From NCBI GenBank assembly GCA_038087875.1, contig CM075990.1:13456001-13520000 (forward strand): 64,000 nucleotides of DNA. The letters run 5' to 3'. Shown piece after piece: positions 132-61,929 of the stretch. Position 1 is the stretch's first letter. Every line of letters starts with the position of its first letter. The notes below the pieces were generated by a model. The model was not told where the DNA came from, did not search any database, and saw only the letters and a list, made by a program, of their open reading frames with translations. A program made the position numbers and the translations under genes. The stretch is from Malacoraja senta (taxonomy: Eukaryota).

Positions 132-905
132 CTAAAATAAAGAAAAGTTGCAATGAACTTAATGAATGTTCAGGAGCAACTTCTTCCCCACAACCATCAG
201 GCTATTAAACACTACAACATCCAAATAAGCTCTGAACTAGACACACTTGGGGGTCATTATCCTTGAACTATATCTCATACGACAGTAAAACACTCTTGAC
301 TCTTAAATATTTAACAGCTCCATTTCTGTTGATTAATACGTTCAGAAGTAGTCACTTAGATGCATTTACATGTAGTACATGTAACAATATTTTTTTCCCC
401 TGGTCATTGAATTAAAAGTCATTTTATTTCTTCTTCACAGATTTAAGAGGGGTATGTGGGAAAGAAAGAATCAAGCGAACAAATTACAAATACAAATAAC
501 AAATTGCACATGTTGGGATTTTCCTGCCTTGATCACCTTAAAGCCAGGGTAAGATAAATTTCCCTCAGAACTATTGTAATGCTATAGGTTTAGTGAGTTA
601 TAACTTTAAAACTCTTTCCATTAGTGGATGCCACTCACTGAATGGTGTATTGTAGGAGCAGATAAGCTGATACAGGAATGAGATGTTTATTCACTCCAGG
701 TGTGGCTGCGCCAAATGTTGGCAGAATTATTCAATTATCAGCATGTACCACAAATAATATTAAGTGCAGGTAGAGAATAGCTTAACTTTGCATCATATTT
801 GGCACGGCCATTATGGGCAGAAGGGTCTGTTCCTGCGCTGTACTGTTCAATCTTCTATCTATCTTCTTCTCATGCCTCATCTCAATGGTGCAAAAAGTCT
901 GTTCA

Positions 906-1139
<234 letters not shown>

Positions 1140-1628
1140 TCACTCGTGGTAAAAGAAGGAAGAATTGAAAATCAATTGACCCAATTCATAAAAAAATATT
1201 TATAGATTCCGTTGATTAAAAAAAGATACAGTAAATGTGACTGACTGCAATGGCTTTTTTTTTGCCCTGTACATTGTGTTATTTTCATCATGTATCTAGA
1301 TTTATTGAAATCTAACCTGAATTTGACTGCTCACACGCTAGAATCGATGCTAAATTAATATTTGGCAATATAAAAGTACAAAATCAGTAAGCTATGCTAG
1401 AACCAGAAATCATTCCAAGTTTCTGGATCGAAAGTGGAAACATTAGAAATGGTTAGATAAAGCTAAGAACTCACCTGTCACTGGAGGGTTACGCAGCATT
1501 ACTAAATGCTGAAGTGCATTTTCCATGACAAAATTTACATAGAAATTGTGTTTGTTTCTTGTAACTTTTTGATGGGAAAGAAAATGTGTTATATTCTTAG
1601 GTATTAATGAAGACAGATAATGAGTTAC

Positions 1629-1807
1629 CTTTGAATACGTCTGTTTATAGCTTTGCGAATGGGCTCTGTTGCCAGGCACTTTTCCGAATGGGTGGGAAGC
1701 AGGCTGAGGACTTCAGGGATGGTCGGATTGCCAGCCGGTAACCAAGATAGTTCCCCTGTGTTCTGAGGGAGTGGTATGATGTGCAACTCCCCATGATAGA
1801 AAAATAC
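1629..1807 (-). CDS. ECD: ECD coding exon 4
   Basis: tag|GTA TTT TTC...; VFFYHGELHIIPLPQNTGELSWLPAGNPTIPEVLSLLPTHSE...IRKAINRRIQ; donor AG|GTAACT. Confidence 0.95.
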
Positions 1808-2937
1808 CTAACAAGGATTAAAAATAATAAAACTTCAGTTCCGTCTAAAATGTCAGGGTCAACAATCTATCTACAATTATTGAAGGCGCAATTACCAGTT
1901 GCATAAGGAGCTAGAGAAACATTTAGTACAAAAATTAATGCCACCAATTAACATTTTTTCAACATACAATGTTCCAGTACTAAAACAAGATTTCAAATTT
2001 CATACAACCAAGCATCCTTATGGTTTTGTTATCTGATTACACTTTTAGCTCCAATAAGGCCCCAAATTTTTTTTCACTGAATTGCTGTTTCTGCACTTTA
2101 CGTGCAAAATGTATCGATTTCCTTTATAACAGCCACAGCTTATGGGAAATAAAAGACTTGCATATGTAGACATATATTCTTTATACCTTTTTTACATTCC
2201 AATTAAGTGATATTAATATGTCATCACTATTGTAACACAAATAAGCTCCCATTAATAATATCCATGATCAGATAATCCATTTTAACAAAAGTTAAGGGTG
2301 GCCCAAACATTAACCACGTCGCTGGGGAGAACTCCATAATATTCAAATGGGAACGTCCATATCCATTTGCAAGAACAATATAGTCGATATTTATAGTCTA
2401 TTATAGAATATATTTCCATCAACAGTGTGTTAGCAAACAAATTACTGTGACATTTTCATTCAACTTGTTCTTTGATGAATAAATCCATATAAGTTCCTGA
2501 AGTAATTATGGCGCTACTTTTCACCCCTATAAGAATTTTATTGTTCGGATCCTGGTGTGGCAATTGGCAATCTATGGCATTTGATAAACTATGGCAATTA
2601 AATACTCTCAATTCTTAACCTTGTTAGTAATTCACTATTATAATTTGTATTATGTGACGTTAAATAGTCACGTACCCAAACTTTTATCCTAATGTAGTAG
2701 TTAGCACATAAATCGTTGATGGACTAGGTTTCTTTCTGTATTGTATATGACAAAAAACTACTCTTTAGTTCTTCAGAAACCACCATAAACTTAATAGTGA
2801 ATACCATATACATTTAGAAAACTAATAAGTATGCTCTGTTTATCTAATAGACAGAATTATAGCAACTTCTTTATTGTATTCAGTCCACTACAACCCATTT
2901 AGACTTTAATTCTAAGTTAATAAAAGCGTTTGCACTA

Positions 2938-3084
<147 letters not shown>

Positions 3085-3141
3085 TTAATGTTAGCTTGAC
3101 GTACAAAGGGTCTCGTTCTCTAGAGATATTGGAATATATTA

Positions 3142-3351
<210 letters not shown>

Positions 3352-3427
3352 CTAAGTGTCCTCACACGCTCAGAATTAGGAATAAGCCTTATCATAAAGG
3401 ATCATTGACATGCATAGATATAGCAAT

Positions 3428-3670
3428 GGGTAGCACTGTGGCGTAGCTAACAAAGATGCTGTATCACAGTACCAGCGACCCGGGTTCGAGCCTGACCTCG
3501 GCTGCTGTCTATGTTGAGTTTGCATGTTCACCCTGTGACAACATGGGTTTTCTACGCATGTGCTGGTTTTCTTCCCACATCCCAAAAAGCATGTGGGTTT
3601 ATTGGCCTCTGTAAATTGCCCCTAGTGTTAGGAGTGGATGAGAAAATGGGTACAGAACTTGGGTGAACAG
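3428..3670 (+). mobile_element. tRNA-derived V-SINE
   Basis: GGTTCGAGCC B-box and V-domain. Confidence 0.75.
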
Positions 3671-4204
3671 CCGTGCCTGTAGGCCGAGGGTCAGCGGGTC
3701 CGAGATGTGCTTTCCCAGCCTCACATGTTGCTTCCTGTCTGTCAGGAAGTTGGTGATCCACTGACATAGGGGTTCAGGCACAGTCAACTGGGAGAGTTTG
3801 GAGTGTAGTAGCTCTGGCACAATGGTGTTGAATACAGAGCTAAAATCCACAAACATTAATATATTTAATTTTCACATCTTAATAAAGATTATGCTTTTAG
3901 TTTAGTTTAGCGATATAGCATGAAAACAGGACCTTCGGCTCACTGAGTCCATGCTGGCCATTGATCACCTGTTCTCTTTTACAATGGAAAGTCAATACCA
4001 GTCATATCTTCCTACTATTGGTGATACTGAAGAGAATCATTGTACAACTTAAGTTTTATGAATATGGCATGTTGACATCCTGACTAATATGCATATTACA
4101 AATGTCTGCTCAATGTGGGCCAATATAATTTTTAATGAAAATGTAAATAAAATACTTTAAAGTTTAACCTATGATAACATCTGAATTGGTTTGTAAATTG
4201 AGAA

Positions 4205-4675
4205 TAGACACAAAATGCTGGAGTAACTCAGCAGGTCAGGCAGCATCTCACAAAAGATATAGATGATGTTTCGGGTCGAGACACTTCTTCAGACAATTGT
4301 GTGGGCAGGCAGCAGCTGCGGAGATATAACCCATAGGATAATGGGGTAGCGTAGGAAGGAACTGCAGATGCAGGTTTACACTGAAGTAGGCACAAAGTGC
4401 TGGAGTAACTCAGCGGGTCAGGCAGCATCCCTGGAGAGAAGGAATAATGTAGCCCAGAAACGTCACACATTCTTCTCTCCAGAGATGCTGCCTGATCTGC
4501 TGAGTTACTCCAGCATTCTGTGTCTACCTTCATAGTATAATGGTGCTTGACCAGAGGAAGAGCCTTTGTCTCTCCACTGACATCAGTCTGAAGAAGGGTC
4601 TCGATCCAAAACATTCTCTCCATAGAATAGATGCTGCCTGTCCCGCTGAGTTACTCCAGCATTTGATGTCTACCC
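4205..4675. mobile_element. Cluster of three Penelope-derived hammerhead/hairpin elements in ECD intron 1
   Basis: Repeated GCTGGAGTAACTCAGC / GCTGAGTTACTCCAGC arms, with CTGAAGAAG(G/T)GTCTCGA cores on both strands. Confidence 0.8.
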
Positions 4676-4699
4676 ATGGATTCAAATACAGATTGTGGA

Positions 4700-5255
4700 A
4701 CCACAGCAAGGCTTCGCGGTGGCAGAAGGCCGTGTCGACGGTAACTGAAGTTGCAGGCAGAGTAAGTTCACTGCCTCCCGGAGATCCACTCACCCCGGGC
4801 CGCCGTGTAGTTCAGGCTGAAGGCCTCGTTGTGCCAGATGTACCCGGCGGACAGCAGGGCCAAGCGGCCGATGATCGCCTCCCGCTGCCGCTCCCATCTG
4901 TCCCTGCAAGTCCGGGGGTCGGAAAGCGAAAGGTGGGCGCTGAGGTAGAGCCGGTAACGCACCGTGTCCTGCAGCACACGCTGCCGCATCCCCTCCACCA
5001 GCCCCTCCATTACAAGCCGCCTGATGTCCGTCACTAAAACACCTCCGCTCGGTTCGTTCCAACCCTCAAACGCTTCCCCCCCTCCCCCTTCCCCCCCCCC
5101 CGGCGCCACGTGATCGTGCCAATGACGTAATCACGCCCGGGATGCTCTGCGACGTCTTTCGTCACGGAGGCCACCCCCCGCGCGGGACGACACCGCGTAC
5201 AGAACGTCAACTGCCCCTCAGGTTTGAATCTGACCTCCCGGTGACGTGTGCGGGA
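4700..5255. promoter_or_regulatory. CpG-island promoter of ECD, possibly shared with the divergent HGSNAT-like gene
   Basis: GC- and CpG-rich island over ECD exon 1 in an AT-rich background. E-box CACGTG 5107-5112, CCAAT ~5119-5123, CRE-like TGACGTAA 5123-5130, further TGACG/CGTCA half-sites, and a poly-C GC-box-like tract. Confidence 0.75.
4794..5010 (-). CDS. ECD: ECD first coding exon
   Basis: MEGLVEGMRQRVLQDTVRYRLY...GYIWHNEAFSLNYTAAR-G matches the ECD N-terminus (EDTVEY.LF...YIWQNQPFNL.Y). Donor G|GTGAGT at 4793, phase 1. The start could be the ATG at 5010 or the one at 4989. Confidence 0.9.
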
Positions 5256-26784: not shown

Positions 26785-27630
26785 CAATTCAATTCAATTC
26801 AATTCAATTCAACTTTAATGTCATTGCACAAATACTGAGTATGGGTACAACGAAATGCAGTTTTGCGTCAGTCCGTAGTAGTAGTGCAATATAGAAATTT
26901 TAAAAAAAAGAGGATACAGAATAATCAAAAATACAGAATAATTAACAATGGGGACGGAGGGTCCGGAGGAATCTATCGGCGGGACTCCGAGTTCAGCAAT
27001 GCGACGGTATAATTGTAGAAGCTGTTCCTCATCCTACTGGTACGAGACCTGAGGCTCCTGTACCGCCTCCCTGATGGGAGGAGGGCAAACAGTCCATGGT
27101 TGGGGTGGGAGGGGTCTTTAATGATCTTCCCAGCCCGTTTCAGACACCGTTTTTGGTGGAGGGCATCCATGGCAGGGAGCGGGGCACCGATGATGTGCTG
27201 CGCGGTTTTCACCACCCGTTGTAGTGCCTTCCTGTCCGCAACAGTGCAGCTGCTGTACCATACCGTGAAGCAGGTGGTCAGGATGCTCTCGATGGTACAG
27301 CGGTAGAAGTTGGTCAGGATCTGGGGGGACAGGTGGGCTTTCTTGAGCCTCCTCAGGAAGTAAAGGCGCTGCTGTGCCTTTTTGATCAGCTTGGAGGTGT
27401 TGAGGGACCAGGACAAATCCTCCGAGATGTGTACCCCGAGGAATTTGTAGCTGGAGACGCGCTCCACCTCAGTCCCGTTTATATGGATGGGGGTATGTCT
27501 GCCCCCTCTGACCTTCCTGAAGTCGACAATAATTTCCTTCGTCTTCTTGGAGTTGAGGACGAGGTTATTGTTGGCACACCAGGTTGTCAGGTGCTGGACC
27601 TCCTCTCTGTAGGCTGACTCATCGTTGTCA
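26785..27630 (-). mobile_element. Rex1/Babar LINE, 5'-truncated, inserted in a CR1 tail
   Basis: ORF: DESAYREEV..L..WC..NNL.LN.KKTKEIIVDFRK...KKAQQRLYFLRRL...LPSGRRYRSL. (TTGAA)n tail. TSD CTATTT at 26779-26784 and 27631-27636. Confidence 0.92.
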
Positions 27631-29799
27631 CTATTTTCTATGTTTCTATGTCTATGTTTCGATGTAAGAACATACAGAAGCCATGGATGGATCACAGCAC
27701 CTCCAAAAATGCTCACTTGCCCTGTCAAGTACCTTCTGTCTCAGCTGAGTATGCGCACATCCAAGAGAGGCTCCAGCAGCTGCAGAAATTAATAACCTTG
27801 GACTAGAGGGACTGCTTCAGAATAAGGAGAATCTGAATAAGGGTCCTGACCCAAAACACGCTTTGTCCTATCTCCCCCTGATGCTGCCTGACCCGCTGAA
27901 TTTCTTTTGCACTTTGTGATTTTCTCTAAAAGGATAATCTGTTTGAGGGAGCTTATTATGTTTAAACTGGCTGCTGAGTTTCCTACGTTACAAAAGAAAG
28001 TACTTGTACTGACTGGAAATGTGTTATAGAAAGGTGTCTTTTTTCTCAAATATGAACTAACCATTATTTTAAATCATGAAAGAATATTAACTAATATGAC
28101 ATCAGAAGTAAAATATAGTCTGCTAAATTGGTTGATAAATACATAAATATAACCAAATGACATTGCAAGGAGACTAGTCAAACTACAAAGTTTTAATTTT
28201 TTTAACGTAAAATAACGTTAAAAAAAAAGAATTTTTGCTGTTAAATGGAAGAACATGACCATTCTCTAACTGTTGCAGTGATCGAGAAATTAATCCATTG
28301 AACACCCTTTTAAAATATTGTGGATGGGAACTGCTGGAAACGCTTCAAGCATTTATACAATAATATTCACAAAGAATAAATTCAAGGTCACTAGAAATGT
28401 TCTATGTTAATGCTCATCCTATTCTTTGCTCAAAGGAACATCGACTAATATAAAAAGGCAAATATAATATGCTCTGGTAGATCAATAGAGGGAAGGGTGA
28501 GATTAAAGAGGGAATGTACTAGGTCCTGGGGGAATGCTGTCTGTTCAAAACAATTCCCTGGTGTAATGAGAACAGTCATGCTCAATAATATTGATTGTAA
28601 AAAAAACAATAACATTTATTACTCCCATAGAAAGCAACTCACCCAGTCATCTTGTTGCTAAGTCACACTGTGGTGATAATGATAGTGAAGTAAGCCAATT
28701 GATCGCAGTTTGAGTTTTGTCTTAAAATTAGCTTGTATTTTCAGAAATGCTGTTGATTCAGGACGGATATCATACTGGTGGGGTATGCCTGATCCCCTAT
28801 AAAATACATGTTGTCCTGCGGTTAGCATGGTTCTTAATTTGGGTGAAGAGTAATTTTACAAGCTCCACAGTGTTTCTGGTCTGCAAAGCATGATGCTTCC
28901 CCCTGCCAGTTACATAACAATCACTTCATTCAGAAGTGCCCGCTCCTGTTCAACATTTCCTTCAGAAACACATTAGAGACCAAACACTTGGCAGAAAAGG
29001 ACACTTAACCTTTCCCCCTGCCATTCATTGGTGCTACATACTGTTCTTACAGTTCATTCTTTCTCCATTAGCGATGAAACTGGACAATCCAACAGTTTAT
29101 CCTAACTTTATAATTAAAATGATAGGAGCCACTGTGTTTACAAGTTTTGCTCCATATTAGTTGATTCAACAGGGTGGCTAATTGCCACACTCCCATTTTA
29201 ATTCAACACACAAGAGTATGTCTGAACTGTTAATTGAAGTACCAGTGTTTAACAAACTCCTTCATTCTGATGCTTCCAGTAGGGGTCAGTTGCTTCCAAG
29301 AGCGAGAGTTGATTAAGAAAAAGAGTGCTAGAATCATGCAGAATGGAAACAGGCCCATCAGCCTGACTCATCTATGCCAATTAAGGTGCCCATCTAAGCT
29401 AGTCTTATTTGCCCGCATTGACCTGTTTTGCTCCAAACCTTTATTATCCATGCACCTGTCCAAATGCCTTTGAATTGCTGTTATTGTGCTACTTCAATCA
29501 CTTCCTCCAGTAGCTCCAGTAAACATTTCCTAGTAAATGTTTCCACTTCCATCTTAAACCTTTGCCCTCATTCCCCCCCCCCCCCCTCATTCTAGTTCTT
29601 GTGATATGAGCTGTGGCATCACTGTGAACTGGTGGTTCCTCGGAATGTCATTCTGACTGGGAGTGTGTGAATGTGGAATTCTTTGTCCCCAAGGTATACT
29701 TAGTTCACAGTATATGGAGAAAATACAACCCGGACAGTTTTTCATTCTATTCATTGTACCATCAGTTCATGCATTTGGAATATTTTCAGTTTGCATTTG

Positions 29800-36110: not shown

Positions 36111-36875
36111 TTTGTGACTATCTAAGAAAAAAACTATCCTATTGTTTCAGACTGGTTAATGGCCCACTGGGCAATTTTTAGGATTCGTCTGCCTCATCCA
36201 ACCCACATTCATTCCTCAGTGAACCCCAGCAAACGGAATTTGGAAAACTGGTATTTGTGATATTCTGTTGCACAATTGCTTCTCATACCGAACAAATCAC
36301 TGCACTTAAATGTAATTTGTTATTTATAGAGTGGTTTGAGATGTACAACGGTTCTAAACTCTGCTCATATTTCATCAGTTTGCTCTCTTTTTTTGTTTCA
36401 TTGTTAAAAACTAAGATTCTTAAGAAGCTCCAGAGGTTTTTTTTGAGGCATTGAGAAAAACCTCATGGCAACTCACAGTTCTGTGAAAAACTTCAGATAT
36501 GCAAAGCAGAACCGTTGACTGGAAATAATTAAGGCTATATTTAAAAATTGCAATCATAATTCAATGGTCATTAATCTTATGACTATTTAAAACTTAATTT
36601 CATTATTTGACTTACAAAATGAGACTGTCAGATAAAAATGGCTTAAGCAGAGTGAACTTCTCTTCAATTAAATAAAAAGGCAGATTGGTTATTGCTAATT
36701 GATTTTAATATAAATTATTGGTTATGATTAATCACATAAGTTTTCAGCGTAATGTGTAGGCTCACTAATTGACGGTATTCGAGTTCACAATGTTGAAGAC
36801 CAGTCTTGAAGAATGAAGCATGGTTGGTGGAGCTCAGAACTAGACATCTCCACTGACATTATCCTCCCGGATAAT

Positions 36876-37000
36876 CTTCTTCTTGTGTATGGCGTGCACA
36901 GCCAACTTGTTCTATTTGATCTTATTTGATTGTGCACGCCGGGTTGATTGCATTAGTCGAAACAGGACAGACCACGTGAAGGTTGCAATCTCCCGCCCCT
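36876..37000 (-). mobile_element. Ribozyme-headed short non-autonomous retroposon (SINE/SIDE-like) with (AAG)n tail
   Basis: 12-bp TSD CTCCCGGATAAT at 36864-36875 and 37001-37012. 5' HDV-like ribozyme, internal 10-bp stem GGCGTGCACA/TGTGCACGCC, 3' AAGAAGAAG tail. Confidence 0.8.
36946..36999 (-). ncRNA. Minimal HDV-like (CPEB3-type) self-cleaving ribozyme, predicted
   Basis: Minus strand reads GGGGCGG-GA-GATTGCA-ACC-TTCACGT-GGT-CTGTCCT-G-TTTCGA-CTAA-TGCAATC, i.e. P1-J1/2-P2-P3-L3-P3'-P1'-G-tiny P4-C(catalytic)TAA-P2'. P2 is a perfect 7 bp, P3 is 3 bp, and P1 is 7 bp including the G1-U wobble. Confidence 0.8.
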
Positions 37001-37212
37001 CTCCCGGATAATGAAAGGCCTAGATAGAGTGGACATGGAATGGATGATTCCAGTAATGGGACAGTCTAGAACCAGAGAGCACAGCCTCAGAATAAAATGA
37101 CCTATATTTGGAATGGATCCCATCCATCCATCCATCCATCAGGACCCACACCATCCTGGCCACACACTCATCTCACCATTGACATCAGGAAGAAGGTACA
37201 GGAGCCTGTAAA

Positions 37213-40734: not shown

Positions 40735-41915
40735 GATAAGCCTTTGATAAGGTCCCGCATGGGAGACTGGTGACTAAAATTAGAGCACATGGTATTGGGG
40801 GTAGGGTGTTGACGGATAGAAAATTGGTTGGCAGACCGGAAGCAAAGAGTAGGAGTGAACGGGTCCTTTTCAGAATGGCAGGCAGTGGCGAGTGGAGTGC
40901 CGCAAGGCTCGGTGTTGGGGCCGCAACTGTTTACCATATATATTAATGTTTTGGAAGAGGGAATTAGGAGCAACACTAGCAAGTTTGCGGATGACACAAA
41001 GCTGGGTGGCAGTGTGAGCTGTGAAGAGGATGTTAGGAGGTTGCAGGGTGACCTGGACAGGTTGAGTGAGTGGGCAGATGCATGGCAGATGCAGTATAAT
41101 ATAGATAAATGTGAGGTTATCCTCTTTGGCGGCAAAAACAAGGGGGCAGATTATTATCTCAATGGGGTTAGGTTAGGTAAGGGGGAGGAGCAGCGAGACC
41201 TGGGTGTCCTTCTACACCGGTCACTGAAAGTTGGCTTACAGGTACAGCAGGCAGTGAAGAAAGCTAATGGAATGTTGGCCTTCAAAACAAGAGGATTTCA
41301 GTATAGGAGTAAAGAGGTTCTTTTGCAGTTGTATAGGGCTCTGGTGAGACCACATCTGGAGTATTGTGTACAGTTTTGGTCTCCTAATTTGAGGAAGGAC
41401 ATCCTTGTGATTGAGGCAGTGCAGCGTAGGTTCACGAGATTGATCCCTGGGATGGAGGGACTGTCATATGAGGAAAGATTGAAAAGACTAGGCTTGTATT
41501 CACTGGAGTTTAGAAGGATGAGGGGGGATCTTATAGAAACATATAAAATTATAAAAGGACTGGACAAGCTAGATGCAGGAAAAATGTTCCCAATGTTGGG
41601 CGAGTCCAGAACCAGGGGCCACAGTCTTAGAATAAAGGGGTGGTCATTTAAGACTGAGGTGAGAAAAAACTTTTTCACCCAGAGAGTTGTGAATTTATGG
41701 AATTCCTTGCCACAGAGGGCAGTGGAGGCCAAGTCACTGGATGGATTTAAGAGAGAGTTAGATAGAGCTCTAGGGGCTAGTGGAGTCAAGGGATATGGGG
41801 AGAAGGCAGGCACGGGTTATTGATAGGGGACAATCAGCCATGATCACAATGAATGGCGGTGCTGTCTCGAATGGCCGAATGGCCTCCTCCTGCACCTATT
41901 TTCTATGTTTCTATG
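40735..41915 (+). mobile_element. CR1-clade LINE, 5'-truncated young copy (RT C-terminal half open)
   Basis: ORF 40828-41823: SGVPQGSVLGP...KFADDTKL...LYRALVRPHLEYCVQFWSP...FFTQRVVNLWNSLP. 3' UTR hairpin and TTCTATGT tail. Confidence 0.95.
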
Positions 41916-50840: not shown

Positions 50841-51849
50841 TCAATACTTTGTAGAACCACCTTTCGCTGCAATTACAGCTGCAAGTCTTTTGGGGTATGT
50901 CTCTACCAGCTTTGCACATCTAGAGACTGAAATTTTTGCCCATTCTTCTTTGCAAAATAGCTCAAGCTCAGTCAGATTGGATGGAGAGCGTCTGTGAACA
51001 GCAATTTTCAAGTCTTGCCAGAGATTCTCAATTGGATTTAGGTCTGGACTTTGACTGGGCCATTCTAACACATGAATATGCTTTGATCTAAACCATTCCA
51101 TTGTAGCTCTGGCTGTTTGTTTAGGGTCGTTGTCCTGCTGGAAGGTGAACCTCTGCCCCAGTCTCAAGTCTTTTGCAGACTCTAACAGGTTTTCTTCCAA
51201 GATTGCCCTGTTTTTGGCTCCATCCATCTTCCCATCAACTCTGACCAGCTTCCCTGTCCCTGCTGAAGAAAAGCATCCCCACAGCATGATGCTGCCACCA
51301 CCATGTTTCACAGTGGGGATGGTGTGTTCAGGGTGATGTGCAGTGTTAGGTTTCCACCACACATAGCATTTTGCATTTAGGCCAAAAACTTCAATTTTGG
51401 TCTCATCTGACCAGAGCACCTTCCTCCACATGTTTGCTGTGTTCCCCACATGGCTTGTGGCAAACTGCAAACGGGACTTCTTATGGCTTTTTTTCAACAA
51501 TGGCTTTCTTCTTGCCACTCTTCCATAAAGGCCCGATTTATGGAGTGCACGACTAATAGTTGTCCTGTGGACAGATTCTCCCACCTGAGCTGTGGATCTC
51601 TGCAGCTCCTCCAGAGTTACCATGGGCCTCTTGGCTGCTTCTCTGATCAATGCTCTCCTTGCCCGGCCTGTCAGTTTAGGTGGATGGCCATGTCTTGGTA
51701 GGTTTGCAGTTGTGCCATAGTCTTTCCATTTTCGGGTGATGGATTGAACAGTGCTCCGTGAGATGTTCAAAGCTTGGGATATTTGTTTATAACCTAACCC
51801 TGCTTTAAACTTCTCCACAACTTTATCCCTGACCTGTCTGGTGTGTTCC

Positions 51850-51851
<2 letters not shown>
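50841..51851 (-). pseudogene. Tc1 DD34E transposase, open from codon 4 to the stop; ATG (53008) separated by an insertion
   Basis: KEHTRQVRDKVVEKFKAGLGYK...VLWSDETK...FQQDNDPK(34 aa)...SPDLNPIE...AAKGGSTKY. The first codons, ATG AAG CCC AAG GA, lie at 53008-52995. Confidence 0.92.
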
Positions 51852-51904
<53 letters not shown>

Positions 51905-60628: not shown

Positions 60629-61929
60629 AAATAAAGACAACCTGTTGAACAGATCAACAAATCCTTTCTAGTCATTGGGCGAATTTGTCAAAACCTCACT
60701 TCTCCTGATCCCCAGTTCCTCTCGAGGTAACACCAAACACATCTAAGTATTGGCTTGCTGCTTCTCAAAGAGATGAACGCCTGTAGATTGCCAGCTTGAG
60801 CCCCGTGTTCATTCTCTCAGCTAATCAATAATGCATTCAGTTTATGTAACGGCTGAATGGAGCAGCTAATTTTGCATTGCCTGCCACTCAATAAAGAAAC
60901 ATCAGCTCCTTTTTTTCATTCATAGCCAAGTGACAAAGTGTATTAACTCTGAATTTACTACCCCTTCAGGTTTAATAGATTATCCTTAATTTGTTAAGGC
61001 TCCAACAATGATAGCCTGCCTGAAGGCATGTCTGCAAATGTTGTTTTTGAAACTTTGATGTTTTTAGATACTCTTTAGTTAGGAAAAGATGAACAAGCCA
61101 CTTTCAGTTTATAACAACTGGAAATAAGGTGGCACATTCATTGTATTTCACTAAGTGCACTAGAGTCAATGCTCACTTTATAATGCCTCGTATCCATTTT
61201 AACAGTAGCACCTCATCCTATAATAATGGACTAGCAATGTGTGGCAATTTCAGTGGCTCATTGGTGCAGTTATTTTATTTTGATGCTTAAGGTGAAGAAT
61301 AATCTGTGACTCAGGTCATAAATTATTACAGAAGCTATTCATTCCCACCCATTTATTTACAGCAGAGTAACATATTGATTTCAATATTACAATTTCTCTA
61401 ACTCAATTCACCCCTCCCCCTCTAACACCAGCTAAGTAAGAGGAGCGATGAATTGATCCTTCTCAAATTAGCAGGCTGTGACCAGTGAGATATCACAGAG
61501 ATCAGACCTTGGCTCTGACTATTCACAATCTATATCAACCGTATGGCTGAAGAGATTAATGTAACATATCCAAGTTTGGCAATGACACAAAACTAAGCAG
61601 GAATATAAGTTGTGGCGATGACAGATAGGTAGTATATACTGTAAATATATGCCTGACCCGCTGACCAGCATTAGTGTCTTTCTTTGTACTTGGACTCCTA
61701 CATTCCCTTGCTTCTCCTTGCTACCCTTCTTAAATCATGGTAGATCATTATTTGTCCACTTTAATATAGTCTGAAAGAGGTATGTAGATCTCATTTTTAA
61801 TGAGTTCTTGCTTGTCATATAATATTAATTAGAAACTGAATAGATATGCCGAGTTGGGGTTTGTTTTAAAGTCGCAAGGATCTGGCCCTTTGTTCAGATG
61901 CCAGTACTGATTACTTAAGATCTGAGTAA

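Follow-up and report, generated by a model that had tools for sequence, protein, structure and literature searches.

We found that a short repeat on the minus strand of the analysed stretch of DNA (64 kb, hereafter the window) is one copy of a family with thousands of matches in the genome, and that the 5′ end of the family coincides with the first nucleotide (G1) of a minimal HDV-like ribozyme fold. The element probably arose from a Vingi-type LINE by internal deletion and is non-autonomous, with a 5′ end cut by the ribozyme and with mobilisation in trans. By Vingi-type we mean an Ingi-related LINE with a single ORF, which encodes an endonuclease together with an RT but lacks RNase H. The element would keep about 95 nt of the presumed LINE 5′ end and the last ~40 nt. 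The fold and the repeat element are themselves real and well bounded.

When the sequence was re-read, the minus-strand letters and pairings from 36999 were the same as in the preliminary description, and its HDV-like double-pseudoknot order, its CUAA junction and its 12-bp TSD, 1 nt from G1, were all confirmed (Table 1). In the window copy, 17 of 17 stem pairs form, in the nested HDV order P1, P2, P3, P1.1. All seven pairs of P1 are present, three of them G-U (G1-U and two more); P2 has seven of seven Watson-Crick pairs and P3 three of three, and L3 (UUCACGU) is followed by the G-U. The G1 wobble lies at the predicted cut site and J4/2 carries a C in the arrangement C-N-R-A, as in HDV-like ribozymes. 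The two extra G-U pairs of P1 had been attributed to C-to-T decay, which agreed with the C>T differences from the majority sequence CCGCCCT. The size of about 125 nt given earlier holds for the TSD-bounded copy; the family measures ~138 nt, and this copy was shortened by a 14-nt internal deletion in the body, and with it went the stop and the last codons that come from the partner LINE. Similarly, CUAA is the J4/2 of the window copy, whereas the family majority is CGAA. P1 is weaker in the window copy, the predicted energy of P1 and P3 being -9.4 kcal/mol versus -12.4 kcal/mol in the copy L060. As a ribozyme, this copy has probably been weakened.

Table 1. Positions in the window of the element, its parts and its flanking duplications.
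Feature	Position	Strand	Remark
12-bp TSD copy, upstream of the element	37001..37012	-	100% identical repeat
Single base between TSD and G1	37000..37000	-	Possibly untemplated, or else base 13 of the TSD with a mismatch
54-nt fold of a minimal HDV-like ribozyme; G1 = 36999 = family 5′ end	36946..36999	-	Fold and 5′ pile-up
P1, 5′ strand, partner 36964-36970; G1-U wobble	36993..36999	-
P2, 5′ strand, partner 36946-36952	36984..36990	-
P3-L3-P3	36971..36983	-	L3 identical in phage theta-type matches and metagenome Vingi-like heads
P1.1 G-U and 5-nt P4 remnant	36957..36963	-	5-6 nt here in theta-type matches
J4/2 CUAA; putative catalytic C at 36956; second base G or U by subfamily	36953..36956	-
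Body hairpin, 10-bp closing stem; inverted arms 36891-36905 / 36926-36940	36891..36940	-
3′ end common to Vingi-type LINE: 3′ UTR and (AAG)3 tail at 36876-36884	36876..36903	-
TSD copy downstream of the tail, 12 bp	36864..36875	-	Exact direct repeat

A strict HDV descriptor of our own matched only once on both strands of the window, at 36999. A looser descriptor gave three matches in the window and five in ten shuffled windows. No Rfam match in the window reached the gathering score. The best one, RF02682 over 36946-36999, had 15.1 bits (cut-off 44) and E = 2.9, which is far under the threshold and counts against the fold. RF02682 was the only HDV-type model that matched at E ≤ 10; the CPEB3, tRNA, 5S and 7SL models did not match at this level and ARAGORN found no genes, as was expected from the earlier statement that the element has no tRNA, 7SL or 5S head. 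Compared with shuffled sequences, the body hairpin had a z score of -5.0, and none of 200 shuffles was equally stable. The minimum free energy structure of the window head was an alternative hairpin (z = -0.74); this result came from a folding model without pseudoknots and counts against the proposed explanation. In phages, theta ribozymes have their cut site beside the 3′ end of a tRNA; the element has no tRNA, and the variable TSD lies upstream of it. Nor was there a head from tRNA, 7SL, 5S or snRNA, by which SINE1, SINE2, SINE3 and SINEU are recognized.

Three motifs of the element had 2,664, 3,807 and 4,845 (core motif) exact matches in the 1.94-Gb assembly, which are minimum values; the reversed controls had none. 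The repeats in the flanks suggest a cartilaginous fish as the host. The other copies that the preliminary description expected throughout the genome therefore exist. Among 87 distinct near-full copies, a set partly selected by likeness, the majority length was 138 nt and the mean divergence from the majority sequence was 4.6%. In this partly selected set, G1-U was present in 73 copies and C44 in 84. P1 pair 5 occurred as three pair types (U-G in 65 copies, U-A in 8 and C-G in 6); the majority has U5-G where the window copy has C5-G. Beyond this pair, no two-sided covariation was found within the 87 copies, which counts against the proposed explanation. As both P1 variants lie on a CpG, they might also result from plain decay. 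The stems of the metagenome heads and phage matches described below differ, yet they pair. In 44 copies chosen by their 3′ end, only three head variants occurred in at least seven copies, and all were compatible with the fold: G8A in J1/2 (17 copies), G32A in P1, which turns U-G into U-A (7 copies), and G45U in J4/2 (9 copies). G32A was linked to a body variant in six of its seven copies.

Among the first 100 of the 4,845 core-motif matches, J4/2 started with CG in 57, CT in 29, CA in 8 and TG in 6. Thus, the catalytic CpG decayed symmetrically (TG 6 vs. CA 8). A protected catalytic CpG had been suspected from hand-picked loci, in which CA far exceeded TG, and this excess was gone at 8 versus 6 of 100. 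Read-based counts were left out of the comparison; the reference carried the CA state. The catalytic C is lost neutrally in individual copies. The symmetry of the decay implied that inserted copies are not kept for function and that any selection acts on source elements.

The element was also present in public runs from six coded organisms and two metagenomes, belonging to 12 studies; of the 20 run entries that contain it, 10 may derive from the source of the window itself. For the near-identical short elements in the six coded organisms, and for the protein P0001 from a metagenome, shared ancestry, contamination or horizontal transfer is possible. One locus (L126, G000:C20:6844484-6860554) had a tandem repeat of ~3.1 kb with five element copies, all from a subfamily in which the middle differs. 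The middle of this subfamily was also found in 22 of the 43 matches of a 3′-end search in which the upstream letters were foreign to the element. This 3.1-kb tandem and a 12-mer upstream in the same 22 of 43 matches had been taken for the LINE; they proved to be the short-element subfamily in a tandem duplication.

To avoid selection bias at the 5′ end, we examined 50 copies that were chosen by their 3′ end only; two pairs of them were duplicated loci. Of these copies, 46 aligned from position 1-3, one more with an internal deletion did so by eye, and three were without head. The stacking of 5′ ends at G1, which had been named as a check, was thus seen in 47 of 50 copies. In four of four runs, used as assembled contigs, G1 marked a sharp rise in depth; the most frequent 5′ loose end lay at the G1/G2 boundary with unrelated flanks. 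The pile-up is compatible with cleavage or with initiation alike. TSDs of 8-16 bp (mode 12) were found in 68 of the 87 copies; in a search limited to -4..+3, 50 of the 68 had a TSD that stopped at G1 or included one base of the element. The base preceding G1 was T in 42 of the 87 copies, compared with 30% in the flanks (P = 4e-4; position -1 was picked post hoc), and it was mostly inside the TSD. This T excess might reflect annealing of the run-off cDNA end to the target. Dispersed copies, variable TSDs, a microsatellite tail and some 5′ truncation were all observed, as in TPRT products.

The source of the 3′ end was revealed by the search with foreign upstream letters, which led to a frame ending L-D-L-Q-L-stop. 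The ORF-end pattern W-x-x-x-L-D-L-Q-L-stop was joined to the element's 3′ UTR at 198 places in the genome, and the last ~40 nt, including the stop codon, are common to the element family and the LINE. A search for an autonomous LINE with both ends in common had been proposed in the preliminary description; for the 3′ end it led to a Vingi-type ORF end that is contiguous with the 3′ UTR of the element. At L086, a 5′-truncated LINE copy of ~230 nt with its own 10-bp TSD encodes a peptide with a Cys/His motif and aligns to the last 42 nt of the element; element positions 55-100 have no match in it. The JGI metagenome protein P0001 was 83% identical to this peptide and continued into AVHAIRKKK, which is the element's 3′ UTR and tail translated. 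Among 139 genome matches to P0001, 105 were 65-91% identical, many of them at the 198 ORF-end places. Two partner copies differed at 7 of 108 bases, which suggests an age like that of the short element.

In its own genome, the partner ORF was seen only as the last ~290 aa. No open frame longer than 463 aa was found in partner copies among the 134 scored of 10,543 candidates, which counts against the proposed explanation. Its full-length relatives, P0153 (68%, the closest), P0011 (47%) and P0042, are ~1,000 aa long and contain an endonuclease as well as an RT; RNase H had no match in the three proteins. Vingi elements are described, in the available text of PMC13708176, as having a single ORF with endonuclease and RT and without RNase H. 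A compact single ORF with an APE endonuclease plus an RT, but lacking RNase H, was found in P0153, P0011, P0042 and the P0001 C-terminus. Thus, the partner LINE looks Vingi-type and not RTE from its sequence, and the choice of Vingi over Ingi follows domain content rather than a tree with named references.

We also attempted to find the LINE 5′ end. Among the 100 listed of 105 matches, no recurrent alternative continuation of the head was seen, which counts against a LINE origin of the head. Three 33-nt probes taken ~2.2 kb upstream of long partner copies gave no head match, a weak result given the possible truncation of these copies. The 3′ strand of P2 contains an ATG that was considered as the LINE start codon and rejected, as no full-length homolog begins so. 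Frames without a stop, 986-1,014 aa long and with 38-39% identity to P0011, were present at G000:C4794:29592-32462:+, C8:934719-937562:- and C4:35486720-35489563:-; they seem to be Vingi-like LINEs from a different family that are still intact. Yet another family, with 45-46% identity to P0001, was mostly stop-free over the 3′ part (34 of the 139 matches).

Similar heads were found outside this genome. In metagenomes, 80 loci were related to these Vingi-type proteins and the upstream sequence was read for 17. Eight of the 17, all of one family (L151, L155, L157, L182, L184, L195, L201 and L211), had an HDV-like head ~200 nt before the endonuclease motif. These heads have the same L3, the same G-U and mostly the same J4/2, with different P1, P2 and P3 and a real P4. 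The heads have a P1 of 6 bp and are decayed, neither descriptor matched them, and one family counts as one observation. A similar tail (ATACG..AAG) was present at the 3′ end of L139 and L203 among 12 loci examined. A search with the P3/L3 motif gave nine viral contigs, six of them with the fold directly behind a tRNA, and with a 7-bp P1; as these were selected by the element's own P3/L3 motif, the likeness in P3/L3 is partly built in. The folds of the viral contigs fit theta ribozymes as they are described in the accessible text of PMC10879173. Six phage loci (L128, L129, L132, L134, L135 and L136) carried theta-type ribozymes near 3480-3560 behind tRNA-Glu or tRNA-Ser, and L136 has a second one elsewhere. 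Another HDV-like fold, well paired but unrelated, lay in the flank of a Vingi-like locus at L150 and L154 (near 3760, minus strand).

It seems that these observations can be joined in the following course of events. Transcription of a source copy would most likely start at host promoters and read through into it. The ribozyme would then cut just 5′ of G1, and the folded 5′-OH end would resist exonucleases; cleavage and protection are suggested by the fold, the 5′ pile-up and the known behaviour of HDV-like ribozymes. A Vingi-type protein may bind the 3′ end in trans, and TPRT would be primed on the AAG tail; the 3′ identity and the TSDs were observed. RT would proceed to G1, and the 5′ joint would form beside a target T or TG by a presumed route of joining, at the boundary and with the T excess that we observed. 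Afterwards the inserted copies decay neutrally, as was seen for the J4/2 CpG. Head and tail might well have a common origin.

Other explanations of the head and the tail have to be considered. In a Vingi-derived element, a promoter inside the head might instead fix the 5′ end; it could resemble Pr77 of L1Tc or be a Pol III promoter in degenerate form, with the ribozyme slow, secondary or only protective. The 5′ pile-up would be the same in this case; the heads of L1Tc and NARTc double as promoter and ribozyme (PMC3383444, in the part available), and the accessible account of R2 has the HDV-like fold aiding template insertion by structure, not necessarily by activity (PMC11331408). However, the end lies exactly at the G1 of a G1-U wobble, the C is kept in the main subfamilies, and a B-box-like stretch (matching the consensus only with 2 mismatches) occurred at chance level, with 17 found and 19.6 expected. 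We consider an internal promoter unlikely. It is also conceivable that the element is a chimera, whose head came from a different LINE family or was once a free theta-type ribozyme and whose tail is Vingi-type, like the R2/R1 hybrid SIDEs that are reported to exist (PMC3414825, available text). The partner 5′ end was not found by the probes or the continuation search, positions 55-100 are without match in the 230-nt LINE copy, and the 7-bp P1, P3/L3, G-U, 5-nt P4 and J4/2 layout are as in the tRNA-adjacent phage matches. Nevertheless, the viral likeness in P3/L3 is built in by the motif selection, Vingi-like LINEs elsewhere bear such a head, and Vingi is known to yield bipartite derivatives according to the part of PMC5786205 available to us; a chimera therefore appears rather unlikely. 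We likewise doubt that the head is a captured minimal theta-type ribozyme instead of the partner's own 5′ end, with a catalytic RNA replacing a Pol III gene. If this were true, no vertebrate genome would have a larger stock of P4-less HDV-like ribozymes than these thousands of near-intact copies, which would cut any host pre-mRNA in which they lie on the sense strand.

In the preliminary description, the element was thought to be mobilised by an RTE LINE. One RTE family here does have an AAG-type tail, TSDs of 10-12 bp are given as typical of RTE (PMC6007223, available text), and ribozyme-headed and bipartite RTEs are known (PMC5786205, same limitation). However, we inspected the 3′ ends at 14 of 150 PF20049 matches, representing three families, and none resembled the element, the best local scores being 14-18 for three of these ends; the Vingi-type ORF end is contiguous with the element and has the same 3′ end. 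An RTE partner is therefore highly improbable, and the descent of the tail, as read from the sequence, already largely refutes it. The multi-copy retroposon with its 5′ end at G1 of an HDV-like fold and its need for a LINE RT have been retained from the original interpretation, and RTE as the partner has been replaced. Finally, the fold might be a chance or self-fulfilling reading of the 5′ end of a repeat, as could be argued from the Rfam E value of 2.9, the little covariation and the chance matches of loose descriptors. The sole strict match in the window, the 17 of 17 stem pairs and the identity of G1 with the family end argue against it, and we give this reading almost no weight.

A ribozyme-headed, internally deleted LINE is a known architecture, found in R2 SIDEs and NARTc, and the element would act as they do; here it occurs in a vertebrate, with a minimal ribozyme and a Vingi-type LINE. 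In the parts of the sources available, the bipartite LINEs of Ingi and Vingi (RIME, NARTc and the Vingi-1_EE derivatives) also consist of 5′ and 3′ LINE ends without the ORF (PMC5786205), NARTc and SIDERs are ribozyme-headed deleted LINEs, and NARTc heads are tested HDV-like ribozymes that cut before +1 (PMC3383444; PMC4035085). Unlike RIME, NARTc and the Vingi-1_EE derivatives, our element has a vertebrate host, ~138 nt, thousands of copies and almost no P4. R2 SIDEs and R2/R1 hybrid SIDEs of Drosophila similarly combine a 5′ HDV-like ribozyme with a LINE 3′ end and are moved in trans (PMC3414825, as accessible). Few SIDEs exist and they occur only in 28S rDNA, whereas the element is dispersed and abundant, with TSDs of 8-16 bp. 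Retrozymes, according to the available text of PMC7761336, are also non-coding, ribozyme-bearing retroelements of animals and plants. They are hammerhead-based, tandem or LTR-like, with circular RNA intermediates; the element, by contrast, is monomeric, and its only HDV-like fold lies at the 5′ end, opposite a LINE tail. At its 3′ end, the element has an end common to an ORF-bearing LINE, as bipartite non-autonomous LINEs do, and this term, in Kojima's usage as far as PMC4494074 was available, fits better than the earlier label of SINE-like.

The earlier comparison with CPEB3 rested on the loop sequence, as L3 and the following G-U are presumably those of the CPEB3 ribozyme. The CPEB3 ribozyme is single-copy and has a long P4. 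The Rfam CPEB3 model gave no match, and the phage theta ribozymes and the heads of Vingi-like LINEs are closer in appearance. Minimal HDV-like or theta ribozymes likewise have no real P4 and have a 7-bp P1 with G1-U, and the P3/L3, G-U and J4/2 of the motif-selected phage matches are identical to those of the element head. Unlike theta ribozymes, the head has no tRNA and sits at the 5′ end of a retroposon. In the accessible part of PMC10879173, theta ribozymes are active in vitro and a C-to-U change abolishes their cleavage, and nearly 99% of the minimal or theta matches are in phages, human, mouse and protist genomes having been searched as well. The element would thus bring P4-less HDV-like ribozymes, almost phage-confined so far in that account (PMC10879173), into a vertebrate genome in thousands of copies.

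Vingi does not appear among the six clades with ribozymes that are named in the available part of PMC5786205 (R1, R2, R4, RTE, Ingi as well as LOA). Our literature search, which covered the main text of mostly open-access articles, found no report of the 138-nt family or of a Vingi ribozyme; Repbase and Dfam, outside its scope, may record either. If the head cleaves, 5′ HDV-like ribozymes would be extended to the Vingi clade, which is under development for gene insertion (PMC13708176, available text), and a natural minimal template would consist of a 54-nt ribozyme, a hairpin and a ~40-nt tail. It could also be tested whether ribozyme-defined 5′ ends explain why bipartite derivatives occur only in RTE, Ingi, Vingi and R2, as the accessible text of PMC5786205 has it. 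Sense-oriented, intact copies are predicted to be depleted in introns.

Two further identifications in the window were not confirmed. An RTE remnant had been placed at 25.8-26.2 kb from a likeness seen by eye only; this region had a single genome location and gave no protein match, no Pfam match and no tblastn match with three RTE peptides. The host gene had been called HGSNAT-like. Pfam gave no match for the 138 open frames at 33-50 kb (a subset of 174 listed), and the sole match to HGSNAT motifs was GMNS at 61345, far from the element. Elsewhere in the window, exon-like frames at 903-5130 on the minus strand presumably belong to the ECD (ecdysoneless) gene. We take the segment at 26973-27740 (minus) to be an L2-type fragment, that at 40813-41823 (plus) to be a CR1-type RT fragment, and the 338-aa frame at 50841-51857 (minus) to be a Tc1-like transposase.
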